DNA of 64,000 nt from a virus (lineage: Duplodnaviria > Caudoviricetes): positions 1-64,000 of IMG/VR virus record IMGVR_UViG_2684622674_000004; one strand, 5' to 3'. The notes under the pieces were generated by a model. That model was not told where the DNA came from, made no database searches, and saw only the letters and a program-made list of their open reading frames with translations. Positions 4,021 to 64,000 of this stretch are shown in pieces (position 1 is the stretch's first letter; every line of letters starts with the position of its first letter). Made by a program: the position numbers and the translations under genes.

Positions 4021-4421
4021 CATTCCTCCGCTGGCTTGGCTGCTGTGACGCTTGGTGTCTTATATAAACACACGGGGCAGCCAGATAATTTCCTGCCGTC
4101 TGCTGTATACGTAGCAATTCTTCCCTTATCTGACTTATCAAACTGAACACTTATCGGATACTCTGATCTCCCGTTATTTATTGATACAACATAGCCGTAA
4201 CCAAATTTATCAACTGAGTCGCATACGCGGTCGCCAACATTAAATCCGATTGATAATTTCAGCTCTGCGAGTTGCTCACGCAGTGATAGCAGTTCAATGA
4301 GAAGCATAAGTAACTCGGTGTTGTAGGCGTCACCCTCTGCCATCGCTTCGAGCACCTCAATCTGGTCTGCAAGCCCACCGTCCGGCTTGCGGGTAAATTC
4401 CTGCTCAGTTAGCTTGTTCAT
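4020..4421 (-). CDS. Hypothetical phage protein
   Basis: 133-aa ORF, translationally coupled. Confidence 0.55.
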   Translation of the reverse strand: MNKLTEQEFTRKPDGGLADQIEVLEAMAEGDAYNTELLMLLIELLSLREQLAELKLSIGFNVGDRVCDSVDKFGYGYVVSINNGRSEYPISVQFDKSDKGRIATYTADGRKLSGCPVCLYKTPSVTAAKPAEE

Positions 4422-4632
4422 TGCTCACTCCAATCGTCACACGGCGTAGATTTATATCGACGGGGATTTCACTGCGACCCGTTATTGCCAGCGCAAAATC
4501 TTCCGGCGTCATAGATGCGGTTATAGTCCTACCCATGCCAAACTTGAGCACAATCTCAATGCGCTGCTTATCGCCGCCGATACGTGAGATATCAATAACA
4601 GCCTCTGTTTTTCCCTTACTCAGCATCTGCAT
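4405..4632 (-). CDS. Hypothetical phage protein
   Basis: 75-aa ORF in the operon. Confidence 0.5.
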   Translation of the reverse strand: MQMLSKGKTEAVIDISRIGGDKQRIEIVLKFGMGRTITASMTPEDFALAITGRSEIPVDINLRRVTIGVSNEQAN

Positions 4633-4831
4633 TCCCCTCTGTACGATAGAACCCCAGCTTATTTAGTGCTTTTTCAGCGTTAAATTCGACGGCTTCTTTA
4701 TCTGTTACACCCAACAGCAATACGACAAACTTTTTTCCTTTTGGTGGTTTAAATCTTGCGGCTATTTCTTGCCCATGAAGGGTAAAAGTATTAGCAAAAC
4801 TAGCATCACCATCATGTAATTCAACCATCAT
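4616..4831 (-). CDS. Hypothetical phage protein
   Basis: 71-aa ORF in the operon. Confidence 0.5.
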   Translation of the reverse strand: MMVELHDGDASFANTFTLHGQEIAARFKPPKGKKFVVLLLGVTDKEAVEFNAEKALNKLGFYRTEGNADAE

Positions 4832-5472
4832 CTATTACTCCCTTCACACGCCCAATCAGCGCACCCAACAAAATCATGTGGGTTGTATTGCCAGCTTATT
4901 TTTCCGCAGTGAGGGCAGTTCCAGCGTGTTTTACCTGACGATTTACGTCGAGCCTGACGCTTTAACCAATCAGGCACTCTCAGCCCCGCAGCCTGAATCA
5001 TTGTCCGCCGATTAAGCTGGTCGATATTGAAAGTCCGGCGTTTAACGGCATCAGCAGTCACAAATGGTAGCCACACCAGGCTGCTTTCAGTGACGTCCGG
5101 CTCAGGGAATACTTTAGCTTTGTTGAAATCATCTGTTGGCATCAGGTCAGACAGCCAATACACGTCATTCCCATTCCACTTGTCTTTGATGAATGCGACA
5201 TAACCTGCGCAATCTGTCTCGATAGTGTTCTTGCTGGGAATGAGTTGATGATCAACATGCCAAACAGCAGCTGCATCAATTGCATCGGCTGACACTGGCA
5301 GGTCAATGTCACGCCCAAAATCCCAACTTTTTTGAGCATCTTCGAGGGTGTAAACATGGGCTTTGCTTATATCAGTGGCGTACCCACTACCCTGATAGCA
5401 GTGAAATGCCATGTTGCTGCCTACAGTGTCGCGTAGGCAGGCCATGTAAAATCTATTTTGCATTCGGTTCAC
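4828..5472 (-). CDS. Conserved phage protein with C-terminal Zn ribbon
   Basis: 214 aa; WNCPHCGK...GCADWAC. Confidence 0.65.
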   Translation of the reverse strand: MNRMQNRFYMACLRDTVGSNMAFHCYQGSGYATDISKAHVYTLEDAQKSWDFGRDIDLPVSADAIDAAAVWHVDHQLIPSKNTIETDCAGYVAFIKDKWNGNDVYWLSDLMPTDDFNKAKVFPEPDVTESSLVWLPFVTADAVKRRTFNIDQLNRRTMIQAAGLRVPDWLKRQARRKSSGKTRWNCPHCGKISWQYNPHDFVGCADWACEGSNR

Positions 5473-30335: not shown

Positions 30336-30456
30336 AAAACTACGCTTTAACCATTACCATCAACAGTAAACAACTGAGTTATCCAAAATCTGAGCCTCGC
30401 CATTGTGCGGGGCTTTTTTATGGGCTAGGCCCAGCAATAAATCCCAAGGGGACAGC

Positions 30457-42849: not shown

Positions 42850-42936
42850 AATGGCGAAGCCTCGAAGTGCGCGAACACAAACGAGGCTTCTATTTTGTCA
42901 GCAACCTTAAGCGAGTAAACCGACATGAAAAGTATA
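42850..42936 (-). ncRNA. sar-like antisense RNA over the antirepressor leader
   Basis: Hairpin GAAGCCTCG..CGAGGCTTC between arc and ant; minus-strand TATACT within the first ant codons, as in P22. Confidence 0.55.
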
Positions 42937-43494
42937 GCGAAAGTAAAAAGTAATTTCACCTCATTCAAGTTTGATGGTCAAGACGTTCGCGTAATAACAA
43001 AGGATGGCGAACCATGGTTTTTGGCCTCTGACCTTTGTGATGTTTTACATCTAGACACCACTTCAATTCGCAAACTAGATGATGATGAAAAGGGTCTGCA
43101 TTCAATACAGACCCTTGGCGGGGCGCAGAAGGTGGCTGTTCTTTCTGAGTCTGGGATGTGGACATTGGTCCTTCGTTGCCGAGATGCAGTTAGGCCCGGC
43201 ACGATCCCATATCGCGTTCGCAAGTGGGTCACCTCTGAGGTTTTGCCTTCCATTCGAAAAACTGGCGAGTATAAAAACAGTAAATCTTCAAGTGTGGTGT
43301 TGACCGAAAAAGAGTGCCGCTACCGTGTCCGCGTTATCATCTATGACGACTTAATGGGCGGGTGCGCTGAGATGTTTGGTAAGGGGGAAACGATGCGTGA
43401 TATCGCATACGGAGTAGCTAACGATTTGGGGTACAGACCGAATACCTTCACCACTATCCCAATGAATAGGGAAAAGTTGAAGAGGGTATTTTGA
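42925..43494 (+). CDS. Bro-N domain antirepressor-like protein
   Basis: GEPWFLASDLC, LDDDEKG, WVTSEVLPSIRKTGEY. Confidence 0.88.
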   Translation: MKSIAKVKSNFTSFKFDGQDVRVITKDGEPWFLASDLCDVLHLDTTSIRKLDDDEKGLHSIQTLGGAQKVAVLSESGMWTLVLRCRDAVRPGTIPYRVRKWVTSEVLPSIRKTGEYKNSKSSSVVLTEKECRYRVRVIIYDDLMGGCAEMFGKGETMRDIAYGVANDLGYRPNTFTTIPMNREKLKRVF

Positions 43495-51020: not shown

Positions 51021-52202
51021 ATGGCTTGGTATAGGTCAGGTACGGTCACGGCTACGGCCGGACAAAATGTAATCACGGGAACGGGAACTCAATGGGCTAA
51101 TAACGTAATGGGGGTAGCCCCAGGACAGGCGCTAATTGTGCCACGGCCTGACGGAAATACATTAATCTATGAAATACTGGCAGTAGATAGTGATACCAAA
51201 ATAAGAATTAACGGGAATGTAGTTGATGCATTAACTTCATCTAATTATGGAATTCAAACAAGTGTATCTAATTCATATTCGGCGCTAGCACGTGAAACAT
51301 CAGCTCAATTAGCTTTGTATCAGCAACTATTACAAGACTGGCAACAGATAACTACTGGAACGGGTAATATCACCATTATAGCACCAGATGGTACTGAGGT
51401 TGTTATTCCTTCATTGGCTCAATTATCACAAGATATAAGTAATAAAATTAGCCAACAGCAATTATCTGTGATTGGTATTGGATTGCTGAATCAGTCCGAT
51501 ATTGCCAATTTCGATTGGCAAAACTTTGTATTCACGGCAGGTGCTAATTACGTCACTACCTATAACACATGGGTAAATCCTCCAGCAGGAATAACCTATA
51601 ACGCAGGCACTCGCGTAAGCATTCGAGTGATTTATATTTCTAATATCGCTGCTGGGCCTAGAATGGGATTAGAAATAACGCCAGATACCAACTCAGCAGC
51701 TAACTTTAAAGTTTATAAACTGCTGTGTGTAGGGGCGGCAGGTTCAAGGGTATTTACTTTTAATCAAGATTGGAACTCAGCTATACCCATACCTATCACC
51801 GGCGGGGGGACTGGCGCAACTACTTTAGCAGGTGCTCAATCTGCGCTTGGAATAGTTACTGATGCTTTCGGTGCCGGCCAGGTTAGTGGAACACCTTGGG
51901 TGAATATGACGTTATATAATGGCTGGACAGTTCTTGGCGCGAATAATAGATGTCGGTATAGAAAAGTGCTTGGAATGGTGTTTATGGAATTTGCTGCTGC
52001 GGGAGGAACTGTTTCTACTATCACTACCTTACCTGTCGGATACCGCCCATTAGTCAGTGTTATTGCTCCTGCTGTTGGGACTCCCGCCTCAATTTCCAGC
52101 ATATCTCCTCGACTAACAATTGACGCCGCTGGCGGAGTTACTGCTGATGGTTATGCGGCAGGTTCTCCAATTACCGCTGTTTTTTGTTTCTCATTGCAAT
52201 AG
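51021..52202 (+). CDS. Side tail fibre / receptor-binding protein
   Basis: WYRSGTV anchor, GGTGATT, C-terminal TLPVGYRP head. Confidence 0.85.
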   Translation: MAWYRSGTVTATAGQNVITGTGTQWANNVMGVAPGQALIVPRPDGNTLIYEILAVDSDTKIRINGNVVDALTSSNYGIQTSVSNSYSALARETSAQLALYQQLLQDWQQITTGTGNITIIAPDGTEVVIPSLAQLSQDISNKISQQQLSVIGIGLLNQSDIANFDWQNFVFTAGANYVTTYNTWVNPPAGITYNAGTRVSIRVIYISNIAAGPRMGLEITPDTNSAANFKVYKLLCVGAAGSRVFTFNQDWNSAIPIPITGGGTGATTLAGAQSALGIVTDAFGAGQVSGTPWVNMTLYNGWTVLGANNRCRYRKVLGMVFMEFAAAGGTVSTITTLPVGYRPLVSVIAPAVGTPASISSISPRLTIDAAGGVTADGYAAGSPITAVFCFSLQ

Positions 52203-52210
52203 GATTACTC

Positions 52211-52651
52211 ATGAAATTAAATATTTTAGATGTCCAAGGGTTTTATATTGGTGATTATGTAGAAGGTGACTTGCCTGATAACTGGACGTCAGATTTGCTG
52301 GGTAATGGCTACTATAAAGCCCAGTATCAGGGGGCAGTTAAGAACGATGAAACAGGTGAATGGACAGTCGGGAAATGGGTGGAAACTAGCGGCCCATCAC
52401 CTGAAGATATCGAGAAAGTAAAAGAGTCACTTATTGCCGCTGCAAACGCAGAAAAAACAACACTCATGTCTCATGCGTCCGTCATGATCGGCGCATTATC
52501 AGATGAAATTGAGGGACTGGAAGATAACGATGATGTTGTGCCGGATAAACTGCGCACTGATTTGAAAGCGTGGAAGCAATATCGAGTTAAGGTGAAAAAC
52601 GTCGATGTTTCACTTGTGCCGGATATTGAGTGGCCGACAGCGCCGGAGTGA
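52211..52651 (+). CDS. tfa: Tail fibre assembly chaperone
   Basis: LKAWKQYRV...DIEWPTAPE. Confidence 0.88.
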   Translation: MKLNILDVQGFYIGDYVEGDLPDNWTSDLLGNGYYKAQYQGAVKNDETGEWTVGKWVETSGPSPEDIEKVKESLIAAANAEKTTLMSHASVMIGALSDEIEGLEDNDDVVPDKLRTDLKAWKQYRVKVKNVDVSLVPDIEWPTAPE

Positions 52652-52693
52652 TGGGAGGGCAGGGATGCCTATGAGGTGGGGGTGGGGCGGAAA

Positions 52694-52754
52694 TGGGACG
52701 TTGAGTCTAATTTACTGTAATCATGTTTAACCAAGTTTGCGCAAGTTGGGACGT
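52694..52754 (+). promoter_or_regulatory. Probable integrase arm-type sites
   Basis: TGGGACGT at 52694 and 52747, also at 46-53 near the other prophage end. Confidence 0.6.
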
Positions 52755-52806
52755 GTGATCGACGGCTGGCGCGGTATCTAGTTGGTTTTAAAGGTAGATC
52801 TAGGAA

Positions 52807-52851
52807 CTTCTAAGCCGTAGGTCACAGGTTCGAGCCCTGTAGGGCGTACCA
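52807..52851 (+). other. att core: 3' half of tRNA-Arg(UCU); prophage attR and probable satellite attL
   Basis: CTTCTAA anticodon loop, GGTTCGAGCC T-arm, CCA end; no 5' half upstream. Confidence 0.9.
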
Positions 52852-52964
52852 TCTATACTTCTTCTGCCGTCTATCTAAGTCTACTAATCCCTTATATAAT
52901 CAGCCTCTCTGACAATTCCTAGCATCCCAACGTCTACCTACATCCACTGCAATCAACAACAAAG

Positions 52965-53015
52965 TGGGGGTACTATTGGGGGTATGTCTAGGTTCAATGA
53001 AGTGAGATACCCCCA
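52965..53015. promoter_or_regulatory. GGGGGTA repeats, probable P4-type integrase arm sites
   Basis: TGGGGGTA twice plus inverted TACCCCCA before int. Confidence 0.6.
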
Positions 53016-53016
53016 C

Positions 53017-54204
53017 ATGAAATTGAACGCCCGACAAGTCGATACGGCAAAGCCAAAAGAGAAACCTTATAAGCTATCTGATGGCGGTGGATTATTTTTG
53101 TTAGTCAAAACTACTGGTTCACGTTGTTGGCGGCTGAAATATCGGATCGCCGGTAAAGAAAAATTGCTAGCATTTGGGGTCTATCCTGATATCACTCTTG
53201 CTGAAGCTAGAGCAAAAAGAGATGAGGCTAAGCGTATACTTGCAGTGGGCGGCGACCCTGGTGAAGAAAAAAAAGTAGAAAAACAAACCAGAAAAGTCAG
53301 CATTGATAACACGTTCGAAGCTCTTGCCAGAGAATGGCATGCCTATAAAAGGCCCAATTGGTCCAAAGGTTATGCTGATGATTTAATGGAGTCGTTCGAA
53401 AAAGACATATTCCCTTACGTTGGTAAACGTCCAATTGCCGAAATCAAACCTCTAGAAATTCTCGAAACCCTACGCAAGTTAGAAAAGCGCGGCGTCCTCG
53501 ATAAAATGCGTAAGATCCGTCAGGCATGCAGCCAAACTTTCCGTTATGCAATCGTAACTGGCAGAGCAGAGAACAATCCAGCAAGTGAACTAGCTGGCGC
53601 TCTGGCTGTTCAGAAGCATACACATTACCCCCACCTCTTAGCGAACGAGCTTCCCGCATACCTTAATGCTCTCAACGCCTATAGCGGCAGTACAGTCACT
53701 CGAATAGCAACACGGCTCCTTATGCTTACCGGTGTTCGTACAACTGAACTACGGGCTGCTGAGTGGCTAGAATTTGACTTGGACAAAGCCGTCTGGGAAG
53801 TTCCCACCGCCAGAATGAAAATGCGTCGTCCTCACTTGGTTCCCTTGTCAGAGCAAGTTTTGGCATTACTGCGTCAATTACATGAGATTACTGGGCGATT
53901 TAAACTGGTATTCCCCGGTCGTAATGACAGCTTAAAGCCAATGAGCGAAGCCAGTATTAATCAGGTCATAAAACGTATTGGTTATCATGGTAAAGCCACT
54001 GGTCACGGTTTTCGGCACACTATGAGCACCATTTTGCATGAGCAGGGGTTTAATACTGCGTGGATAGAAACACAGTTGGCCCACGTGGATAAAAACAGCA
54101 TTCGTGGTACTTACAATCACGCCCAGTATCTGGATGGCCGCAGGGAAATGCTTCAGTGGTATGCCGACTATATGGATTGCAGAGAACGTCAGTCGAAAGA
54201 TTAG
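53017..54204 (+). CDS. P4-family tyrosine integrase
   Basis: KPYKLSDGGGL, TGVR, HGFRH, QLAH, YNHA. Confidence 0.95.
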   Translation: MKLNARQVDTAKPKEKPYKLSDGGGLFLLVKTTGSRCWRLKYRIAGKEKLLAFGVYPDITLAEARAKRDEAKRILAVGGDPGEEKKVEKQTRKVSIDNTFEALAREWHAYKRPNWSKGYADDLMESFEKDIFPYVGKRPIAEIKPLEILETLRKLEKRGVLDKMRKIRQACSQTFRYAIVTGRAENNPASELAGALAVQKHTHYPHLLANELPAYLNALNAYSGSTVTRIATRLLMLTGVRTTELRAAEWLEFDLDKAVWEVPTARMKMRRPHLVPLSEQVLALLRQLHEITGRFKLVFPGRNDSLKPMSEASINQVIKRIGYHGKATGHGFRHTMSTILHEQGFNTAWIETQLAHVDKNSIRGTYNHAQYLDGRREMLQWYADYMDCRERQSKD

Positions 54205-54241
54205 TTATTAGGTAAAACTCTTCCGTGAGGAATAAAAAAGG

Positions 54242-54350
54242 GTCGGTTCAGTAGGTTCAGTCGGTTCAATATTTTAGTTTGTTGATTTATAGGTTAATTA
54301 ATTCATTTTTTGAACCGACCCTGAACCGACTTTAGGCCATTTGAACCGAC
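54242..54350. repeat. Inverted iteron cluster, probable satellite origin
   Basis: 3x GT(C/A)GGTTCA, AT-rich 42 bp, 3x TGAACCGAC. Confidence 0.75.
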
Positions 54351-54618
54351 CCTAATCGCGTTATCTCCCGAAAACCTGGCTTTTTCTCAGCTAAATCACC
54401 CTAAATATGCCATTGATCAGCTGAAATTGTTCACCACAGTTTGATGTGAAAATGTGAAGTGATGCTGTGCATCGATAGGGTGGGTGCTGGACGAGTATAC
54501 AGTGGTGATTTATAGTAGACCTCAAGAGAATAAGGCTATGCCTAGGCTGATCCCCGAAAACCAGTGCACCTCTACTGGCTGGCATAGTTCCCAGACTAAT
54601 GAGGGTATGAGGTGGTGT

Positions 54619-55500
54619 ATGGGGAAGGCGATAAAAAAAGAACTATCGTGGTTCAATATGAAAAATTATGCGTTTTTGCATAACTTAACGTTAATGGACC
54701 TGATTAAAGAACTGGAGTGGAGAGATTTTTTATTCCGTCACCTAGATGATGACTCGGATATTTTTGAGCATGAATATGAAATAAAATATAATAGGATTTT
54801 CAGTGGTGACCCTAATATTGAAGTCCTTAGCCAAGAAGAGTTGGAGACTGAGGAGCTAATTCACCACATAGGCGAACAGGCCCCTTCTTTAAGAAATATG
54901 TATGGAGAGTTACCGAGACTCTCTTCAAGAGAGGGAGTGAGTCCAGTTACATTCACGGAACTATCTATGTACTCGTTTGCTGCTATTAAGCAGGGATTTT
55001 TTAAAAGAGATGAAGAAAATACCTACATAAAATCTAATGCGATGCTTGCAAGTGTTACTGGTAATATTGATGCTTGTTTTAGTAATAGTGTTCTAACTTC
55101 AATTGATTTGGATGATGCCACTGATGATGAAATTATCACTAGTATGATGCATCTCCTCCCTCTATGGAGGGCTCAGTTATCTCTCCCTGAAAAAGACCAT
55201 GTGGCACCAAAAAGAATTGGTGTAAAAACGTTGCAAAAACTAATTTCTAACAGGGTTATTCCCATACTTGATCTACTTCTCTGGGGCAAAGTGTTCGGTA
55301 AAGAAATAACCAATCCTATGATATCTTTACTAGTTTTTGATGATGACCCTAAGGACACTCAAGCGATAAAAGAGTCTATAAAGCCATTTGCACTAGAGGC
55401 AATGGGAGATAAATATACTCGCCTACTTCGCTTGCATATTAATAAAGATAAAGAGCTAGTCTCGACAAAAATTTCAGAACTAATGCGTAGAGATTTGTAA
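54619..55500 (+). CDS. Hypothetical protein between int and alpA (DUF6387-like)
   Basis: WF....Y start, IDL.ATD.EI, VIPILDLLLW; AT-rich. Confidence 0.7.
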   Translation: MGKAIKKELSWFNMKNYAFLHNLTLMDLIKELEWRDFLFRHLDDDSDIFEHEYEIKYNRIFSGDPNIEVLSQEELETEELIHHIGEQAPSLRNMYGELPRLSSREGVSPVTFTELSMYSFAAIKQGFFKRDEENTYIKSNAMLASVTGNIDACFSNSVLTSIDLDDATDDEIITSMMHLLPLWRAQLSLPEKDHVAPKRIGVKTLQKLISNRVIPILDLLLWGKVFGKEITNPMISLLVFDDDPKDTQAIKESIKPFALEAMGDKYTRLLRLHINKDKELVSTKISELMRRDL

Positions 55501-55696
55501 TGAGAAAAAATCTACGAATTTAGATTTAATTAAAAATCGAGGTTTTTTCATGAATGTTTTTTCTAATGAAAATAAATGAATAAATCTCGAAGTAAATTAT
55601 TTTTTTAATTTCAGCTTATTATATTTTTTCTTGTGATTAAAGTATCTCCTGTACACCAAGGTATATAACCGACCATTACTGAAAACAGGGGTTATT

Positions 55697-55894
55697 ATGT
55701 CACAATCACTTATCCGCCTATCAGAAGTCCAACGCCGCACTGGTTATAGTAAGGCTTGGCTTTACCGCCTTATCAGCCAGAATCGATTTCCTCAATCGAT
55801 TAAAATCGGCACCCGTTCTATTGCCTTCGTTGAAAGCGAAATTGACGAGTGGATCAACCAACGCATCGCTGAATCCCGCAAAGAGGTCGCCTAA
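55697..55894 (+). CDS. alpA: AlpA-family regulator / excisionase
   Basis: LIRLSEVQRRTGYSKAWLYRLI..FP..IKIG.RSIAFVESEIDEW. Confidence 0.93.
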   Translation: MSQSLIRLSEVQRRTGYSKAWLYRLISQNRFPQSIKIGTRSIAFVESEIDEWINQRIAESRKEVA

Positions 55895-56002
55895 TTAAGC
55901 ATATAGGGTGTGCATTTGTTGCGAGTATTTGCGTTAGGTTTAATCCAACATTTGATTTGCGTCGCTACAGACACCAAACGATTTAACGAAGGGTAATTCA
56001 AC

Positions 56003-56515
56003 ATGAAAAAATTAAATGCCTTAATTGGCAGCACCCAAACTCAGCCTAAAATAGTACTCAGCGGTATTAACGTTAATGGCTTGCCTATCGAGTTTGTAGA
56101 TCAATGGACAGAGTATTGGACTAAGCAGAGTTTCGCTATTTCTGTCCCTGCCAATATTCGTCGCCAGTATTATCCCGATGATTCAGCGTTCAGTGTAGCC
56201 ATGCACAAAGCTGGCTATGTGCCGGTTCGTACTCGGAAGCTGACAGGGAAAGACGGACGATTCTGGTTGTATCGAGTAACCGGCAAAGATAAGGGGGTTG
56301 TCGCACCAGTTCCCGCTAATAGCAAGGCTTGTGGCCTATTTGTGCAGGTGTCACATAAGCCTCGATATGGTTATAACGAGGTCGCTTTAGATGGAAAATT
56401 ACTTCATGTATACGGTGACCACATCCGCTTACTGACTAAAAAGCGGGTTCGTGTGAATGGTAAGCAGGTTCAGGGCTACACAGCTAAAGGCCTGCGTGTG
56501 GAGGTGGTGGCATGA
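56003..56515 (+). CDS. Hypothetical satellite protein
   Basis: 170-aa ORF after alpA. Confidence 0.6.
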   Translation: MKKLNALIGSTQTQPKIVLSGINVNGLPIEFVDQWTEYWTKQSFAISVPANIRRQYYPDDSAFSVAMHKAGYVPVRTRKLTGKDGRFWLYRVTGKDKGVVAPVPANSKACGLFVQVSHKPRYGYNEVALDGKLLHVYGDHIRLLTKKRVRVNGKQVQGYTAKGLRVEVVA

Positions 56516-56543
56516 TGCCCACAACTCAAGCCGCCACCCTGAA

Positions 56544-57258
56544 CCGACTATCTTTGAGCGAGTCGGATACTAACCTGATAATTTCGGGTCAGTTGCAAAA
56601 AATTTTGCAGGTGACTTTCGGTTACTTACAAACAGCCCCAGCAATTTCGGTTCTGTTGAAGGGCGGTAATAGTAACGCTCAAAATTTAAACTACGAAACT
56701 TGCGTAGTTCCTGATGCAAGCAATCTATACCAATCTCCAAAATTTAATGGAGATTGCTACTCAGCCAAATATTCGGCTCAGAAAACGCCGCTCAAAAACG
56801 GCAATTCACCGAGTTTACCGGCACACCGTAACCTGTTGATTAAACTTAATTGTGCTGAAATGGAATTAGCTAACTCATTGATTCTTTCGAGGAACGCACA
56901 GTCCGTTTGTCGGGAAATCAAAGGCGAACAGTGTTCGGGTTCGGCTGAACATTACCGTTACTCAGGTTCGTCCGAATATAAACATTGCTTAGGTTCGGTA
57001 GTCATTCGAAACGGATGTAACAATGAAAATCAGCAAGTTACAGGCAAAGAAAAGGGAGGCACTGAGAATACCGCCCTTTGTGGTTATGGTTTTTTCCATC
57101 ATGAGGAAAATCAACATGTTGCAGCGCGGCAGGATTTGCAGCTAGTTAGAAACTATTCGCAAAACCCACACATGCTAAATGATTACTCAAATCTGAGTCA
57201 TGAGGAAAATCAACATCTTGCAGAACAGCATGTTCGTACCTGCGAAATTTTAGTAGGT
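56544..57258. repeat. Dense array of heterogeneous inverted repeats and IHF consensus sites
   Basis: About 15 IRs (e.g. CAATCTCCA/TGGAGATTG, AACTACG/CGTAGTT, CCGACT/AGTCGG); four exact WATCAANNNNTTR; a 26-bp direct repeat. Confidence 0.75.
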
Positions 57259-57437
57259 CAGCCCTTTGGCTCAATTTCTCGTTGCTTAAGTTCCTTTCTA
57301 ATTATGCGCTTTATCCAAGCAGCTAACGATTCATCGCCGTCCTGTCGCTGGGCTTCTTCCATTAAATCTCGCAGTTCAGGATCTAGTCGAAATTGGAATG
57401 GTGGATTGCCACGTCTTTCATTTTTGTGTGTTGACAC
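57258..57437 (-). CDS. Small ribbon-helix-helix regulator, 59 aa, not in the ORF track
   Basis: GTG start; NPPFQFRLDPELRDLMEEAQRQDGDESLAAWIKRIIRKEL. Confidence 0.7.
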   Translation of the reverse strand: MSTHKNERRGNPPFQFRLDPELRDLMEEAQRQDGDESLAAWIKRIIRKELKQREIEPKG

Positions 57438-57573
57438 GTTAAGTACACCCGATGTAATGTGTTTGTGTGTGATGACACATTACATGCACATGAATGAAAA
57501 GGCAACGCCCCGGAGTGCGGAAACACTACCGAGGCGTCTTACCACCAACGATAGATTAGATATCGAGGCAGCT

Positions 57574-57762
57574 ATGTTAAATCATACCCCAACTCGCTTT
57601 AAATTTCTCTTTCTCGCCGTGTGCCGTTCTGACCTGAACGCCAAGCCGCACCGTGAATCAGTCACTGCCCATTCCGAACAAGACGCCCGCCGCTCCCTGG
57701 CTGGTCAGTTTGTACTTTCCTTTGCTGGCCGCATTCCTGCACAGGGGGTATGCAATGCTTAA
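57574..57762 (+). CDS. Icd-like host cell division inhibitor
   Basis: FLFLAV.R, A.SEQDARRSL..FVLSFAGRIP; GAGG RBS; TTGACA at 57431. Confidence 0.8.
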   Translation: MLNHTPTRFKFLFLAVCRSDLNAKPHRESVTAHSEQDARRSLAGQFVLSFAGRIPAQGVCNA

Positions 57763-58213
57763 AAAATACCGTGTTGAATTTAGCGCATTAGACGCTGCTG
57801 GTGGTGCTCTCAAACTGTCATGGTGTGGTGAAGCTGAAAGCCTTGATAAAGCATCTGCCACTGTTCTCTTGGGGGCTACAGAGCGCCGGTTAAGCAACGT
57901 TCAGATCACCAGCATCATGCAGCTCCTTGATGAGGATGATATCTACCCACCTTCATACAAAGAAACTCAAGCCCTGATTGCTGAACTGATGGGCAGCCAT
58001 GGTAAGCCAATCCCTGACACCAGCGAGAATGTATCCCGCACTCGGTTACTTCGCGTTAAAGAAGGTCTGCTTCATTTGTTGACGGTTGTTATTCCTCTGA
58101 TTGAGAACGAGCAGCAACGATTGCAGGTGTATTGGTGGGCTGAGGCGGTACATAACATCGTGCAGTTTGAAGAGCTTGACGCGAAAAATGAGCAGGGGGT
58201 GTGCAATGTCTAA
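57755..58213 (+). CDS. Hypothetical satellite protein
   Basis: Coupled 152-aa ORF. Confidence 0.6.
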   Translation: MLKKYRVEFSALDAAGGALKLSWCGEAESLDKASATVLLGATERRLSNVQITSIMQLLDEDDIYPPSYKETQALIAELMGSHGKPIPDTSENVSRTRLLRVKEGLLHLLTVVIPLIENEQQRLQVYWWAEAVHNIVQFEELDAKNEQGVCNV

Positions 58214-59000
58214 AAAAACTGAGTTAACTCTGGTCGCGGCCAAAGATTTGCAGGTTATTGAGTATCGCGGTCAGCGTGTGGCAACCACCGAGCAGCTTGC
58301 GGCTGGGTATGGTACTGATGTCGAGAATATTCGTCGTAACTTCAACCGCAACAAATCCCGCTTTATTGAGGGGAAGCATTATTTTCAGATCACTGGCACT
58401 GAGCTTGAAAATTTGCGCGGGTCTTTAAGTCCTGCACAAATTTCCAGCAAAACGCGCAGCCTTACTTTCTGGACTGAGCGCGGCGCTGCCAATCACGCGA
58501 AGATGTTAGAAACCGATCAGGCGTGGGAATACTACAACGACCTCACCGAGTTTTATTTTTCTCGACGTGATGCATTGCCAGCACCTGCAACTATTCCCGA
58601 CCTCAGTCGCTTGGAAATCCTTCAACTGGCTATCGACTCCGAGCAAGGCCGTTTAGCTGAAAAGCAACGCGCCGACAAAGCTATTCGTACCAAAGGACAG
58701 ATTAGCCGTAAACGTGAAGCCAGCGCCCTCGGCAAACTAAGCGCAGCCACTCGCAAATGTCGTGTACTGGAAGAACGGCTGGGGGAAAGTACAAAGCATG
58801 CCACGGTGAAAGCTGTAGAAAATGTGACTCACCAGAAGTTTGAATGGCGTCCATTGCGCAAATGGTGTCTTGAAAATGGCTTTAAACCGGAGATGGTGCC
58901 TGATCCACAGTATGGCTCTGTAAAATCATGGCCTCGCGAAGCATGGCTGGCAGTACATAGCATCAATCTGTCCGATGTTATGGGGGTGACTCATGAATAA
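58206..59000 (+). CDS. ORF6N-domain antirepressor-like protein
   Basis: RVATTEQLAAGYG, RFIEGKHYF, WTERGAANHAKMLETDQAW. Confidence 0.88.
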   Translation: MSKKTELTLVAAKDLQVIEYRGQRVATTEQLAAGYGTDVENIRRNFNRNKSRFIEGKHYFQITGTELENLRGSLSPAQISSKTRSLTFWTERGAANHAKMLETDQAWEYYNDLTEFYFSRRDALPAPATIPDLSRLEILQLAIDSEQGRLAEKQRADKAIRTKGQISRKREASALGKLSAATRKCRVLEERLGESTKHATVKAVENVTHQKFEWRPLRKWCLENGFKPEMVPDPQYGSVKSWPREAWLAVHSINLSDVMGVTHE

Positions 59001-59190
59001 ATTAGCGCCCTGCGAAGTTTCCGATCTTCTCAGTCAAATTGCTTCAATTTTAAAAGTCAGTTCAATGCTGATTGCTAGTGAGGATGGTAACGACACGGGT
59101 TATGAACTTCTTTGGATCGCTCAGGAACGCGCTGAAAAAGCGGCGAAAAATATCGAGGGGGTGAATTATGCGCGAACCGCTGCCAAATGA
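58993..59190 (+). CDS. Hypothetical satellite protein
   Basis: Coupled 65-aa ORF. Confidence 0.55.
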   Translation: MNKLAPCEVSDLLSQIASILKVSSMLIASEDGNDTGYELLWIAQERAEKAAKNIEGVNYARTAAK

Positions 59191-59338
59191 TCGTTACAAA
59201 GACAGTCATGGCTCATTGATCACTGTTGATAATGTTGCCTTTAATCGCGTTACTTTTAGCCGTGACGGATATTCATCGCCCTGCATTATGCCACTGGCGC
59301 GGTTCGTTGCTGAATTTACCTTTATCGGGAGAGCATAA
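59168..59338 (+). CDS. DUF4222-like small protein, 56 aa
   Basis: PNDRYKDSHG..TV...RVTFSRDGY..PC..P..RF..EF. Confidence 0.7.
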   Translation: MREPLPNDRYKDSHGSLITVDNVAFNRVTFSRDGYSSPCIMPLARFVAEFTFIGRA

Positions 59339-59340
59339 CC

Positions 59341-59544
59341 ATGAAAGCCAGTGAATCAGTACCTCTGGATATTGCCACGCATAAGGCTGGTCAATTAAAT
59401 GCTCTCTTGCTGTTGATGTTTGAATCCAATGTTGAATTAGATACTACTGACGAAAAGGAATTACTAGGTCTAGCACTGGATCTCGCCGGGCCAGTTGCGG
59501 TTCATTTGCTTGAGCGGGAGGCCGGACAAAATGGAGCGCCTTGA
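59341..59544 (+). CDS. Hypothetical satellite protein
   Basis: 67 aa, GGAG RBS. Confidence 0.55.
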   Translation: MKASESVPLDIATHKAGQLNALLLLMFESNVELDTTDEKELLGLALDLAGPVAVHLLEREAGQNGAP

Positions 59545-59657
59545 TATAGCCAGTAGCTAAATGCCCTGTATTTAATTAGTTAGCATTCCAACATCTAAAA
59601 AATAACAGCCGTCAGGCTGGGGACTCGCTCGGCCTGATGAAAGGAAAGGATATATTT

Positions 59658-60053
59658 ATGACGAACCTGAATCATTCAATCGAATTAAATCGTAAACATA
59701 TTGCAGTGGCATTTATCGCTTATTGTCAGAAACGAAATAGAGGCGAATCCATTGCCAATGTCATTATTAATTCTAGAAAGGTTGTTGTTCTGGAAAATTT
59801 AACTGAGGCAGCAATTTGTAATTGCCTAATACATTCTCTGGAAGTGCTTTGTTTTCAGGAATTCGGGCGTGATGACGGTTCTCGGATCCTTGTGGAAACC
59901 TACACTCAGATGCTGAGTAAAGATAACAGTAAATTGACACCGCACGGCGTCGAGACAATGACGGAAGTCATGAAGGCTACGGTCGTAGAGACTTTGGCTA
60001 ATCCTCATGATAACCGGCATGGGCTGGTATTCAGTCAGGACGGTGCAGCATGA
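59658..60053 (+). CDS. Hypothetical protein (DUF5375-like) upstream of the primase
   Basis: Position; LEVLCFQEFG, LTPHG. Confidence 0.55.
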   Translation: MTNLNHSIELNRKHIAVAFIAYCQKRNRGESIANVIINSRKVVVLENLTEAAICNCLIHSLEVLCFQEFGRDDGSRILVETYTQMLSKDNSKLTPHGVETMTEVMKATVVETLANPHDNRHGLVFSQDGAA

Positions 60054-62719
60054 AACCTTCCATCGACATGATCCGTGAAGTGACGGCTCAGGCCACCCAC
60101 CACTGGCGCGATATTCTTGGTTATCTTGGTATTGATGTACCAGAACGACCTCGTGACCATTCTGCTTGTCCTGCATGCGGCGGCAAAGACAGATTCCGAT
60201 TTGACGATCAGGACGGACGTGGGACTCATTTTTGCAATCAGTGTGGTGCCGGTGATGGGCTTGAGCTGGTACAAAAAGTTAAGCAATGTACCTCCACTGA
60301 GGCGGCGATTATGGTCGCTGATGCGCTGGGAATGGCTCTGAACTCACCCATGCCGGTATCCACTAAGCCTGTAAAACAACCCGCACAGCCAGACATACCA
60401 ATAGCGAATAAGGTTGCGGAGCTGGTGGCGAAAACGGTATCAGGCGAATCTCACTACCTACTTAATAAGGGGCTTCCAAGCCCCTCCCAAGCCCTATTGA
60501 GTGACGGTTCTTTGTTACTGGTACTGCAAACGATGGAGGGCGTGATAACGGGTGCACAGGTGATTAAGTCTGATGGCACCAAACGTCTGATATCTGGAAC
60601 CATCAAAAAAGGTTCATTCATTCCCGTCAGATTCCCGCCGATATCGAGTAATGAGCCGGTTGTAACGGTACTTATCGCAGAAGGTAACGCAACCGGCGTT
60701 ACCGTTTCGTTATTGAGTGATGGGGTTGTACTGGCGGCCATTGATGAAGGGAACCTGATCCATATAGCGAAAGCATGTCGGGAACGTTGGCCTGATGCGA
60801 AAATTATCATTGCTGCTGATAACGACATTAAACCCGGTGAAAAGAATGTCGGGAAAGAATCTGCTGAGAAAGCGGCTACTGCTGTGAATGGTTGGGTTGC
60901 CTTACCACCAACAGATCATAAGGCCGATTGGGATGATTATCGCCAGCAGTATGGGCTGGACGCCAGCATTACCGCGTTTGCTGATTCGCTATATCAGCCA
61001 CATATATTGGCAGAAGAGGAGCCTCCGGTAACGGAGCCTCAGGATGTCAGACGTCCATATGTCGATGAGCGTAAAGGTGGCATGTATTGGGTTGAACCCA
61101 AACTGGATAAAAGTAACGGCAATATTACGGAAAGAGAAAGCTGGCTGAGTGACCCGATATCCGTTGCGGGGATAGGTGAAGATGATAACGAACGGTACCT
61201 GATCCTCTGTTGGACGCCGGAGGGTAGCAATACCGAACGTTCAGAAGCTTTACCCATGCGTGATATTGGCGAACGGGAAGGTTGGTCGCGGCTGCGGGCT
61301 GGTGGTTTGTCTATCACAGCTAAAAGTGGGTTACGGGCAATACTGGCTGATTATCTGCAACGTAGTGGAGAGCGGCAGCTTTGGACAGTTGCCAATGCTA
61401 CTGGCTGGCAGTGTGGGGCATACATTATGCCGGATGGTTCGGTGATTGGGTCGCCTGCAACCCCTGTACTCTTTAATGGCCGTTCATCGGCGGCAAAAGG
61501 CTACACCACTAAAGGTACGCCAGAGAGCTGGCGCAGTAACGTGGCAAAACTCGCTCGAGGCAACCCCTCCATGATGTTGGGTATTGCCTGTGCCTTTGCT
61601 GCTCCGCTCATTGGTCTGGCTGGTGCGGATGGTTTTGGTGTTCATTTATTCGGTGGCTCCTCCGCAGGTAAAACCACGACGGGTAACGCGGCTACCACTG
61701 TTTATGGTGAACCCGAAGCACTGAAGCTCACTTGGTACTCAACAGCATTAGGGCTGGTGAACGAAGCAGCAGCACATAACGATGGATTTATGCCTCTGGA
61801 TGAAATAGGGCAAGGCAGCAATAAGAAGGCTGTTGCTGATGCTGCTTACGCTTTATTTAACGGTGTCGGCAAAATTCAAGGGGCCAAGGAGGGCGGTAAT
61901 CGGGATGTGAAACGTTGGCGAGCAATGGCATTCAGTACCGGTGAAATCGACCTTGAGAGTTATATCCGAGCGGATGGAGGCAAAGTAAACGCGGGTCAAC
62001 TGGTGCGGCTATTAAATGTACCGATTTCCAAGGCCACGGAATACCACGGCTACAAAGATGGTAAAGCCCATGCAGATGCTATGCGGGATGCCTGTAAAGA
62101 CCACTTCGGTGCGGTAGGGCGAGCATGGATTAAGTGCTTAGCCAGCCAGAAAGAGGCAGCGGCGCAAGCTGTCAGGGATGCGGAACGTCGATGGATTGCG
62201 TTATTGCCCGATGAAGCCAGTGAACAGGTACGCCGTGTGGCGTCGCGGTTCGCCATATTGGAAGCCGCCTTGCTCCTTTCTAAGCACCTTACCGGCTGGA
62301 TTGAGCAGGAGTGCCGTGACGCTTTACAGCATGGATTTAATGCATGGGTAAATGATTTTGGTATGGGGAACCGAGAGTCAAAAGCATGGGCGGAACAGGC
62401 TGAATCTTTCTTACAGCGCTTCGGTTATAGCCGTTATTTACCCCATCCTGAAACAGACCCTCGAGATCTACCAATCAAGGATTTGGCGGGATATCGGGAG
62501 AAAAAGCAGGGACTCGACACATTGGTATTCCATACCTTCCCGTCAGTGTTTCGCGACGAGATAGCCGTAGGAGCTAATGCAGTGGCTTTTGCTCAGGTTC
62601 TGGCAGATGCCGGTATGTTGGATAAACCGAGCAAGGGGATCACCAAGAAAACGCTCAGAATTGACGGTAAGCAACCCCGTTTTGTGGTGCTCATGATGCC
62701 TGATGACTTGGAGGAATAA
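60050..62719 (+). CDS. Primase-helicase (P4 alpha Zn-binding + TOPRIM + DUF927 helicase)
   Basis: CPACGGKDRFRFDD, IAEG, AADND, GGSSAGKTT, LDEIGQ. Confidence 0.93.
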   Translation: MKPSIDMIREVTAQATHHWRDILGYLGIDVPERPRDHSACPACGGKDRFRFDDQDGRGTHFCNQCGAGDGLELVQKVKQCTSTEAAIMVADALGMALNSPMPVSTKPVKQPAQPDIPIANKVAELVAKTVSGESHYLLNKGLPSPSQALLSDGSLLLVLQTMEGVITGAQVIKSDGTKRLISGTIKKGSFIPVRFPPISSNEPVVTVLIAEGNATGVTVSLLSDGVVLAAIDEGNLIHIAKACRERWPDAKIIIAADNDIKPGEKNVGKESAEKAATAVNGWVALPPTDHKADWDDYRQQYGLDASITAFADSLYQPHILAEEEPPVTEPQDVRRPYVDERKGGMYWVEPKLDKSNGNITERESWLSDPISVAGIGEDDNERYLILCWTPEGSNTERSEALPMRDIGEREGWSRLRAGGLSITAKSGLRAILADYLQRSGERQLWTVANATGWQCGAYIMPDGSVIGSPATPVLFNGRSSAAKGYTTKGTPESWRSNVAKLARGNPSMMLGIACAFAAPLIGLAGADGFGVHLFGGSSAGKTTTGNAATTVYGEPEALKLTWYSTALGLVNEAAAHNDGFMPLDEIGQGSNKKAVADAAYALFNGVGKIQGAKEGGNRDVKRWRAMAFSTGEIDLESYIRADGGKVNAGQLVRLLNVPISKATEYHGYKDGKAHADAMRDACKDHFGAVGRAWIKCLASQKEAAAQAVRDAERRWIALLPDEASEQVRRVASRFAILEAALLLSKHLTGWIEQECRDALQHGFNAWVNDFGMGNRESKAWAEQAESFLQRFGYSRYLPHPETDPRDLPIKDLAGYREKKQGLDTLVFHTFPSVFRDEIAVGANAVAFAQVLADAGMLDKPSKGITKKTLRIDGKQPRFVVLMMPDDLEE

Positions 62720-62818
62720 GCAGATCGCCTCCATTTGAACTGACCTGAATCGGATTAATCATTCTCTCTGGCGGGGTATGACACCGAGGCCCTGACAGAG
62801 AGTAAAAGAATACGGGGT

Positions 62819-63835
62819 ATGCACATCATGAGAATGACCAAAGAATTACGTGCTGAAGTCTTTCGGCTTAAACAGTCAGGCATTGGCTATAAACGGATAG
62901 CTGACATGACTAACTTGAATTTGAGTACGGTCAAAAGCGCCTGTAAGCGGTCAGGATTATTCGCTGATAATCCCGAACATACAGCGATGTTTACGATACC
63001 AGAGAAGCAATACAGCACAGCACTTATTGTGCCAAAGCCGTTACCCGTGCAGCGGCGTATTACGGGAGACAGGCAGACTGATGCCTATTTGTGGGTGTTG
63101 GAGGTTATTAATACCGGCGAACCGGGACATATTGCGGCGGCAGAGGAAGCCTTGCACAAGCTGACTATCTCCCCCAAAGATGCTCGTGATAATTACACCC
63201 GTTATCTGGAGGCGAATGGTGCGGGATGGACTGCCAGTTTTTCCACAATGATGATGGGCGACCCGCAGCATTATATAGATAGGGCCAGAACCCAATTTAC
63301 CCGTGCAGCAGAGGTCAGGGGGGCATTTGGCAGCTATGAAGCTGCATTGGAACCTACCAAAGCTGAACAACTCATGGAGATGGCCTGTGGTGATATTTAT
63401 GATAATGATTTTGGCTGGACACCTAAGGAAAAAAAGAAGGGATGTATTGAGGGTGAGCGAGTTACTGAGGTATGGGACCTGCGAGCGCAAGCGTCAAAGG
63501 GTTTCGCTGGGGTTTTACCAGAGCCTCATACACTGTCTGATGTTGTAAGAGAATTTCAGTATTGGCAATGGTTATATACGGTGCGTAATGCTGCTTGCAA
63601 AGAAATGGACCCAGGTGGATATGGTTATGATTGTGACGGCCCTATATCAGACCGTGAAACCTATCTTGATAAGAAACTTGAAATCATCCGCCCTCGCCAT
63701 CAACGAGAAGCACTAGAAGTATTGAAGTGGTATTTGCAAAGTGAGCGACATCAGAGTTTTTCAGGCTCAGATAATGATGCGGTATATCTGAATTTGATAG
63801 GCGTGCATATAGGGGATGCGTTGATAGATAATTAA
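62819..63835 (+). CDS. HTH-domain hypothetical satellite protein
   Basis: GYKRIADMTNLNLSTVKSAC HTH; 338 aa. Confidence 0.7.
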   Translation: MHIMRMTKELRAEVFRLKQSGIGYKRIADMTNLNLSTVKSACKRSGLFADNPEHTAMFTIPEKQYSTALIVPKPLPVQRRITGDRQTDAYLWVLEVINTGEPGHIAAAEEALHKLTISPKDARDNYTRYLEANGAGWTASFSTMMMGDPQHYIDRARTQFTRAAEVRGAFGSYEAALEPTKAEQLMEMACGDIYDNDFGWTPKEKKKGCIEGERVTEVWDLRAQASKGFAGVLPEPHTLSDVVREFQYWQWLYTVRNAACKEMDPGGYGYDCDGPISDRETYLDKKLEIIRPRHQREALEVLKWYLQSERHQSFSGSDNDAVYLNLIGVHIGDALIDN

Positions 63836-64000
63836 ATAATGATATCAACATCGCCTAACGTGCTGCTATTGTGGCTGATATTGGTGTTATTATGTCTTTT
63901 CTCGTTACGACTTATGGTAATATATCTACATAGCTAATCAATATAAATAGTGAGTCGTATATTAAATACGGCTCGCTTTTTTATTGGGTAACGTTCAGAG

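Follow-up and report, generated by a model that had tools for sequence, protein, structure and literature searches.

The window analysed here is a stretch of 64,000 nucleotides (nt), positions 1 to 64,000 of the IMG/VR virus record IMGVR_UViG_2684622674_000004 (Caudoviricetes), whose last part (52984 to 64000) is an integrative phage satellite (with integrase, alpA, antirepressor, and P4-type primase genes). Within the satellite, a tract with many short palindromes (56544 to 57258, plus strand) lies between a 170-codon gene of no known family (56003 to 56515, plus strand) and a small repressor gene of the ribbon-helix-helix type on the minus strand (57258 to 57437). The tract makes up codons 11 to 249 of a P4 eta-like read-through frame of 416 codons without a stop (56512 to 57762, plus strand). 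The start of this frame, ATGATG, overlaps the stop codon of the 170-codon gene; downstream of the tract the frame runs antisense across the repressor gene, crosses the control region between the repressor gene and icd (57438 to 57573), and ends in frame as an Icd-like protein, a homologue of P4 Kil (57574 to 57762, plus strand; PHROG 1743, E = 1.4e-16). As described below, the frame is conserved as an open frame and not as an amino acid sequence, and the tract is a mosaic of in-frame modules, four of which are traced to antirepressor genes.

At the locus in the window, the long frame contains no stop, compared with 26 to 27 stops in the other two plus-strand frames. Relatives were collected via the 170-codon protein, that is, with no selection for an open frame, and two chromosomal relatives from E. 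coli were added; 21 loci, 20 fetched ones and the window itself, were examined for the frame. In all 14 loci whose frame begins at the stop codon of the 170-codon gene, the part before icd contains no stop, against 2 to 30 in each of the other five frames, which corresponds to a chance of an open frame of 1e-4 to 3e-10 per locus, and the ATGA overlap with the 170-codon gene is kept. In the other seven, a gene or other DNA is inserted first, followed by a stop-free frame of 299 to 534 codons up to the Icd stop. With the 14 uninterrupted and the seven interrupted loci taken together, all 21 thus possess a stop-free frame (280 to 534 codons) ending at the Icd stop. The frame is open also in the E. 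coli relatives, in which the DNA of the tract is unalignable except for one 24-nt piece in locus L001, and it remains open in relatives in which the repressor gene on the opposite strand has been exchanged for unrelated cassettes. Homologues of the long frame stem only from Yersinia wherever the source is named. Gene callers predict it in 73 clusters, and databases label the products as "Icd-like protein" of 272 to 500 residues; only the last 60 or so codons of these annotations encode a conserved protein. In E. coli NZ_CP172108.1 (L002, 5445 to 6233), RefSeq annotates the entire long frame as a 262-residue "Icd-like protein," and the front part of this frame carries four copies of a AGTACGCGCAC-like direct repeat where the Yersinia units would be. 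An intergenic array of sites is ruled out for the tract, as it lies inside a conserved stop-free frame coupled to the upstream gene.

Mismatches to the relatives at codon positions 1, 2, and 3 amount to 168, 209, and 168 in the tract, compared with 264, 203, and 781 in the 170-codon gene and 26, 28, and 122 in icd. Alignable parts of the tract diverge by 0.04 to 0.17, similar to the third-position divergence of the flanking genes, and the insertions and deletions (indels) of the tract are net multiples of three (3, 18, 21, 27, 30, and 48 nt). AlphaFold2, run with a 45-sequence alignment, yielded a mean predicted local distance difference test (pLDDT) value of 41.3 and a predicted template modelling score (pTM) of 0.17, with a single 14-residue helix in the tract. 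For the 249 residues of the tract, no significant match was obtained in Pfam, in PHROGs, or by tblastn against phages (tblastn E at least 3), and short-word blastp against Rha, ORF6N, and AntA proteins returned motif-sized matches only (best E = 0.032). The sole invariant residues of the frame among 45 aligned homologues, K-E-K-G and L, coincide with the palindrome arms of the unit designated U4 below. The even mismatches over the codon positions, the in-frame indels, and the lack of a fold argue for selection against stop codons and frameshifts and not on amino acids; an ordinary protein gene was rejected for the tract on the basis of the codon-position counts, the AlphaFold2 result, and the family scans.

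A sequence-only reading of this DNA had quoted nine inverted repeats in the tract as examples, and every one was found at its coordinate; the density of short palindromes exceeds the shuffled control about 2- to 2.5-fold (p about 0.03 to 0.04). Six of the nine are perfect, namely those at 56544 (arms of 6 bp, spacer of 11 bp), 56594 (7 and 2 bp), 56689 (7 and 7 bp), 56731 (9 and 8 bp), 56763 (4 and 8 bp), and 57185 (5 and 4 bp), and three are imperfect (6 of 7 arm pairs at 56932, 8 of 9 at 57051, and 5 of 6 at 57238). Repeats were counted as distinct centres with a spacer of at most 12 bp and compared with dinucleotide shuffles. With arms of at least 5 bp, 15 centres were found versus 8.4 expected (500 shuffles; fraction reaching 15, 0.026), and with arms of at least 6 bp, 6 versus 2.3 (1,000 shuffles; 0.039), the latter placing the tract in the top 4% of 715-bp windows of the 64-kb window. 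The palindrome excess is real and modest. As RNA, the tract folds with z values of -3.4 (plus strand) and -3.75 (minus strand; 20 shuffles each), compared with -1.2 for a neighbouring gene, and terminator-like hairpins are in weak excess (6 versus 2.9 expected).

The four exact matches to the consensus of integration host factor (IHF; WATCAANNNNTTR) proposed in the same reading are likewise present, at 56829 to 56841 and 56871 to 56883 on the minus strand and at 57109 to 57121 and 57208 to 57220 on the plus strand. Their expected number in the tract is 0.06, none of 2,000 shuffles reaches four, and the 64-kb window as a whole contains six. The second match constitutes unit U2 (peptide NSLILS), which is present in one to three copies in relatives, and the last two are contained in the two copies of a 33-nt direct repeat (57099 to 57131 and 57198 to 57230, plus strand). 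Two further tandem copies, of 27 bp each, encode the YSGS repeats (56935 to 56988, plus strand), and relatives differ here by 27-bp steps. By the same measure, 12 related loci together contain 68 repeat centres versus 31.2 expected and 24 IHF matches; in single loci the enrichment varies from clear to none, and L001 to L003 have no IHF match.

Four units of the tract were traced, in frame, to genes of antirepressor families, which supports the proposal that they derive from ORF6N, Roi/Rha-like, and Bro-N antirepressor genes as in-frame counterparts of palindromes in these genes. Unit U1 (CCGACT-11-AGTCGG; 56544 to 56566; ORF6N type, peptide RLSLSES) shares 23 identical nt, in frame, with the FRLSLSES-coding segment of the ORF6N antirepressor gene of locus L015, which near this counterpart also encodes TSLIL, resembling unit U2; of the 20 loci searched, 17 carry U1 in almost unchanged form. 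The Roi/ORF6N-like palindrome AACTACG-7-CGTAGTT (56689 to 56709; peptide NYETCVV) has a counterpart in Salmonella phage ST65, where 27 of 29 nt agree in a Roi-like gene, with strand and frame preserved (ENLNYENFVV versus QNLNYETCVV), and its outer arms AACTAC/GTAGTT are also present in the ORF6N gene L199. The Rha-type palindrome CAATCTCCA-8-TGGAGATTG (56731 to 56756; peptide QSPKFNGD) agrees in frame with a Rha-family gene of Erwinia phage Midgardsormr38 in 24 of 25 nt. Finally, unit U4 (AAAGGGAGG-11-CCGCCCTTT; 57051 to 57079; Bro-N type, peptide EKG-x5-AL) corresponds to the palindrome AAGGGTCTG-9-CAGACCCTT in the Bro-N-type gene of the flanking prophage (43090 to 43116, plus strand; open frame about 42925 to 43491; EKG-x5-TL). 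The two have the same frame, the same spacing of five codons, and the same outer arms (AAGGG/CCCTT). Their inner arms are not the same; those of U4 change jointly on both sides.

Two resemblances within the window on which the sequence-only reading had relied are exact (EKGGTENTALCG in the tract versus EKGLHSIQTLGG in the Bro-N gene at 43087, and RLSLSES in the tract versus RGSLSPA in the ORF6N gene), and the further peptide likenesses that it named fared unevenly: NYETCVV and the unit next to YSAKYSA match genes of the Roi/Rha type, whereas DYSNLSH and EENQHV remained unmatched in our searches. The same searches gave no match for the KilA-N label attached to some units, and the pieces do not stem from variable loops, as had been supposed, but represent the conserved palindromic motif of the domain. 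Source genes were not found for the palindrome TGCAAAA-2-TTTTGCA (56594 to 56609), for the repeats at 56763, 57092, 57185, and 57238, or for the ENQH repeats.

Unit U3 consists of the palindrome CGAACA-g-TGTTCG followed by GGTTC (56919 to 56942; peptide KGEQCSGS), and 23 of its 24 nt are kept in the otherwise unalignable E. coli relative L001. A scan of the collection for U3 yielded 12 matches, 11 of them in long frames of the present kind (235 to 443 codons), where the peptide is always KGEQ(Y/C)SGS; 10 of these 11 frames end in an Icd-type C-terminus. In its own tract, L001 has two palindromes of the ORF6N type (CCCTCTTTAAGAGGGG type), similar to those found in the ORF6N genes L188 and L189. 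A 21-bp palindrome of the Roi type (AACTACGAAA-N-TTTCGTAGTT) occurs 48 times in the viral collection (L025 to L072): about 21 matches lie in Roi-like frames, three in another frame of 248 codons, and one in a frame of 695 codons, and the remainder lie in short frames, many of which look non-coding. This distribution indicates that the Roi-type palindrome is not confined to antirepressor genes, and it may have a life outside them.

Units have been gained and lost among relatives, in line with the mosaic character first proposed for the tract: blocks of about 20 to 220 nt are present, absent, or duplicated in differing combinations, several relatives retain only about 240 nt of the tract, and many are without most units. 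The Roi-type and Rha-type units are decaying in relatives (e.g., NLNCETFGG). In sibling loci the same slot is occupied by whole genes, namely of the AntA type in L018, of the ORF6N type in L014 to L016, and of the Rha type, below the Pfam cut-off, in L017. At 4021 to 5622 of L015 and at 4252 to 5082 and 5061 to 6317 of L018, a whole ORF6N or AntA gene separates the long frame from the 170-codon gene; a duplicated junction stretch of about 45 nt flanks the insert in L018, with the result that the long frame restarts with the same MM start.

The least expected result concerns the source families: Bro-N and ORF6N genes, and probably Rha/Roi genes, keep a palindrome within the coding sequence at a fixed motif. 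The 76 relatives of the prophage Bro-N gene provided 26 distinct DNA variants at the motif DEKG-x5-T(L/P)GG, and three relatives lack the motif. Its inner five residues vary widely (LHSIQ, VGLTD, GYSLP, IKNID, TKKIR, VTSSY, and AQIFR), and the DNA is still an inverted repeat. In an alignment of the 26 Bro-N variants with six satellite variants of U4, 86.4% of the cells pair, compared with 70.0% in shuffles; changes on both sides occur in 55 cells compared with 14.3; and the covariation score is 0.383 compared with 0.101, dropping to 0.03 to 0.13 when the partners are slid. None of 500 shuffles reaches any of the three observed values. Two other measures lie near the shuffles, namely the number of pairs changed on both sides (6 versus 5.2) and that of further pair types (15 versus 14.1). 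When compared with synonymous recodings, the Bro-N segment is better folded than 95% or more of them in 22 of the 26 variants, and in 16 it is one of the gene's top three 39-nt windows. For ORF6N, 30 representatives below 85% identity were tested with the satellite's own ORF6N gene as the reference. The clearest excess of mean folding energy over synonymous recodings was found at residues 72 to 75 (-9.6 versus -4.8 kcal/mol), which belong to the LRGSLSPAQ motif homologous to U1, and in 15 of the 30 genes the best window lies at residues 71 to 77. Paired changes and codon choice alike indicate that the Bro-N and ORF6N families keep the palindrome at one fixed motif within the gene.

For Rha/Roi genes the same is probable. 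Among 13 genes of antirepressor families, three of which had been picked by likeness to the tract, eight contain, at nt 143 to 230, a perfect repeat whose arms measure 7 bp or more, and four have no repeat of such length; the Rha genes L017 and L080, not picked by likeness to the tract, are among the eight. As a scan meant to find Roi-family members free of selection bias gave mostly proteins related via their C-terminal ANT domain, the statement on Rha/Roi rests on these 13 genes. Full-text literature searches found no description of a conserved in-gene palindrome in Bro-N or ORF6N, and those directed at Roi yielded nothing of use either. A string of antirepressor palindromes in such a frame was not found in print either; the supplementary "Bro segment" tables of PMC10111431, which lay outside this search, may overlap with it. 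Inverted repeats are reported to be kept within protein-coding sequence in mitochondrial genes of Nematomorpha (PMC6649704), and template switching between inverted repeats is reported from yeast genes (PMC8604942), the latter also being a route to joint change of both palindrome arms. Both cases, as far as these accounts go, concern other organisms and another scale, whereas the palindrome described here occupies one fixed motif of a family of DNA-binding domains.

The Bro-N set contains 302 Watson-Crick cells, 2 G-T cells, and 26 A-C cells, the last mostly at two coding positions (the third base of Gly and the Leu/Pro codon). Of the 26 Bro-N variants, 19 fold more stably as the antisense strand (p = 0.013, an effect of coding positions), compared with only 13 of the 30 ORF6N segments. 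Since wobble pairs are nearly absent and no consistent strand preference exists, a double-stranded dyad site appears to fit somewhat better than an RNA helix. Paired changes of the arms would also be expected from template switching between them, to go by the yeast cases in PMC8604942.

The read-through frame and the variable Bro zone are both of already known kinds. Over its last 69 residues, the long frame is 39% identical to P4 Kil, which forms the C-terminal end of P4 eta (E = 1e-8). P4 eta begins on the stop codon of vis, the homologue of alpA; here as there, a long frame starts from the stop of a gene of the alpA operon, spans the immunity and promoter region, is kept open, and ends in frame as a protein of the Kil/Icd type. 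The present frame differs in being twice as long (416 versus 199 codons), in being coupled to the 170-codon gene, an extra gene between alpA and the frame, and not to alpA itself, in crossing a protein repressor gene on the opposite strand, and in having a front part that is a string of antirepressor-gene palindromes. The portion of PMC10111431 considered here describes P4 Kil as a truncated form of Eta made from an internal promoter (summarising Forti et al. 1999) and classes P4 eta as a gene of the Bro network (Tommasini, Mageeney and Williams 2023). As described in the same portion, the Bro zone of phage-inducible chromosomal islands (PICIs) shares with the present satellite the order of integrase, alpA, Bro-type genes, and primase, the tract lying between the integrase/alpA and primase zones, as well as a variable zone with domain-swapping genes of antirepressor families; that portion makes no mention of palindromes. 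The difference is that the tract contains no recognisable Bro-family domain, only motif-sized pieces of 23 to 45 nt. Bro-network Pfam domains were detected not in the tract but in the neighbouring ORF6N gene and in the slot genes of L014, L017, and L018. The succession of icd and an antirepressor gene is also shared with the immI (c4-icd-ant) operon of P1 and the immA operon of N15, and homologues of Icd were found in N15, PY54, and phiKO2; unlike in P1 immI, no C4-type RNA was found here.

Starting from the conserved open frame, the lack of amino acid constraint, the Kil homology, the origin of the four units, and the palindromes conserved in the source families, we consider it probable that the tract represents the satellite's Bro zone in a decayed state: assembled from in-frame antirepressor-gene pieces, each centred on a palindrome, it would be retained as the translated spacer within a read-through frame of the eta type. 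Ribosomes finishing the gene at 56003 to 56515 would restart on the overlapping ATGATG and translate 416 codons through the tract, the antisense repressor gene, and the icd promoter region, ending as Icd/Kil. In analogy to P4 eta, the act of translation and not its product would be what is selected: translation would shield transcripts arriving from upstream against termination, allowing icd, ant, and the primase gene to be reached. The sequence of the frame would then be scar tissue of a variable Bro zone, composed of short in-frame pieces of ORF6N, Roi/Rha, and Bro-N genes, and the tract would illustrate a possible fate of such a zone, i.e., decay under selection into a ribosome-open frame made of gene fragments.

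Several points weigh against this interpretation. Translation of the frame and its effect on termination, hence the presumed anti-termination role, are carried over from P4 by analogy, and two traits of the P4 system are missing: the tract gives no match to Phage_ASH (PF10554) at E up to 10, whereas P4 Eta matches at E = 3.8e-23, and an immunity RNA of the C4/CI type, which eta translation overrides in P4, is without an Rfam match both in the tract and in the icd leader. Specifically, neither C4 nor isrK was matched at E up to 1 in 52000 to 64000 or at the gathering score in the whole window. Given this absence, the mechanism to be overridden would differ from that of P4 and would consist of a protein repressor and convergent transcription. 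Source genes were traced for only 4 of about 15 repeats, and the two DNA matches to phage genes are weak alone (E = 0.06 and 0.8), deriving their weight only from strand, frame, and gene family. Moreover, the conservation of units U1, U3, and U4 far exceeds that of the sequence around them, and exact IHF matches are strongly enriched, both of which a pure scar would leave unexplained. These two features suggest that U1, U3, and U4, which are kept in nearly all relatives, may still act in cis, either by binding protein or by forming hairpins.

The same features make room for the function that the sequence-only reading had imagined, a landing pad or decoy in which the palindromes are putative binding sites of antirepressor-family proteins, a role they may also have in the genes of these proteins, and, together with IHF, sense or titrate helper proteins and set transcription into icd, ant, and primase. 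Such a pad can coexist with a read-through frame. It is favoured by the correspondence of the units to palindromes that Bro-N and ORF6N genes keep through two-arm changes and codon choice, by the nearly exclusive Watson-Crick pairing in Bro-N (302 versus 2 G-T cells) together with the lack of strand preference in ORF6N (13 versus 16), by the retention of U1 and U4 in nearly all relatives, by the IHF enrichment (4 versus 0.06 in the tract, 24 matches in 12 loci), and by an exact IHF match at nt 153 of HK022 roi, in the homologous place. However, DNA comparison of the tract with the remainder of the window, the prophage Bro-N gene included, gave nothing significant (best match 14 nt, E = 0.15), and the inner arms of U4 are unlike those of the prophage palindrome. 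The degradation of the Roi-type and Rha-type units, the relatives that keep only about 240 nt of the tract, and the E. coli loci L001 to L003, devoid of IHF matches, speak against a pad as well, and we regard it as unlikely.

In a bolder and rather doubtful version, Bro-N, ORF6N, and Rha/Roi genes would each encode, within the DNA-binding domain, a palindromic site for their own product, acting with IHF, and satellites would have strung such sites into one stop-free, multi-specific sensor frame, on which antirepressor-type proteins of the helper would decide about run-on into icd, ant, and primase. One precedent is Roi of phage HK022, which, in work attributed to Clerget and Boccard in 1996, reportedly recognises DNA inside the roi gene itself, adjacent to an IHF site; we know of no such sites outside the gene. 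The exact IHF match in HK022 roi stands where relatives carry the palindrome, whereas roi itself has no strong perfect palindrome in its first 300 nt. An in-gene site copied by a satellite would make the question of the DNA targets and modes of action of these antirepressor domains directly testable; if true, it would provide the first general DNA target for very common and poorly understood phage domains.

Alternatively, the palindromes could act as RNA or single-strand structures. Hairpins on the transcript or on single-stranded DNA might hinder the loading of Rho, stall ribosomes, or cause the convergent repressor transcript to be terminated or processed, and the same hairpins would regulate antirepressor mRNAs. 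In accordance with this, both strands of the tract fold better than shuffles, joint changes of both arms are seen in U4 and in the family palindromes, terminator-like hairpins follow the repressor gene on the minus strand (at 56803 and 56937), and in Bro-N the A-C mismatches exceed the G-T pairs and the antisense strand folds better in most variants. RNA helices usually tolerate G-U pairs, though, and these are nearly absent here; ORF6N shows no strand bias, the Bro-N asymmetry arises mostly from two coding positions, and the count of terminator-like hairpins is a weak excess. We regard a function of this sort as improbable. For U4, the terminator scan revealed only a 5-pair inner stem and a weak T tract, and a known RNA family (C4/CI or large structured RNAs) was rejected for the tract on account of the missing Rfam match.

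The open and translationally coupled frame, its prediction by gene callers in 73 clusters, and its in-frame indels would also be compatible with an ordinary protein that evolves fast, namely a long extension at the N-terminus of Icd subject to diversifying selection. Such a protein is very improbable, as substitutions are even across the three codon positions, no fold is predicted (pLDDT 41), no family matches, and the sole invariant residues coincide with palindrome arms; furthermore, the frame also crosses a promoter region and, in antisense, a genuine repressor gene, both of which are swapped for unrelated cassettes among relatives. Least credible of all is a replication origin with iterons and IHF sites, for which the 27-bp and 33-bp direct repeats, GGTTCGG-like motifs, the IHF matches, and the position of the P4 ori adjoining vis might speak, and which was rejected because the repeats are too few (two to three copies of two different ones) and not conserved (variable or absent in relatives with similar neighbours), while U3 is common to L001, whose primase differs ("DNA primase family protein," 583 residues versus 889 here), an origin does not need the tract to be selected to stay open, and the mapped origins of such satellites lie in the replication zone according to the part of PMC10111431 drawn upon here.

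As for the remainder of the satellite, its first gene encodes the integrase (52984 to 54204) and is followed by a DUF6387 gene, listed with a GTG start at 54484, and by alpA (55697 to 55894, plus strand; Pfam Phage_AlpA, E = 1.2e-18), the homologue of P4 vis. An Rfam int-alpA RNA motif (54535 to 54605; 42.4 bits, above the gathering score) lies within the 5' part of the listed DUF6387 open reading frame, and the true start of this gene is probably further downstream than the listed GTG. A 152-codon gene separates the Icd-like gene from the satellite's own ORF6N antirepressor gene (58206 to 59000, plus strand; Pfam ORF6N, E = 3.5e-23), and the P4-type primase gene (60050 to 62719) has an annotated length of 889 residues.

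The small repressor encoded opposite to the long frame is YlcI/YnfO-like (PHROG Arc-like repressor, E = 5.3e-6), and E. coli records name its counterpart a YlcI/YnfO family protein. A promoter consensus scan of the adjacent control region, which contains repeated TGTGTG-TGACAC motifs, gave no strong sigma-70-like site. Between the repressor gene and icd, positions 57421 to 57489 comprise two 28-nt direct repeats of the TGTGTG-TGACAC type and a perfect inverted repeat of 11 bp, which are probably operators of the small repressor. In all IMG/VR relatives, unrelated cassettes stand in place of this one, and the DNA closest to it is found on E. coli plasmids (83.6% identity).

On the prophage side, tail-fibre-type genes (51021 to 52202 and 52184 to 52651) end about 330 bp before the satellite integrase gene, with no tRNA gene at the junction. 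The satellite may be embedded in, or adjoin, its helper prophage, comparable to the helper-embedded PICIs of PMC10111431. Elsewhere in the prophage part of the window, positions 30350 to 30416 match the Rfam family isrJ with 39.6 bits, compared with a gathering score of 37.

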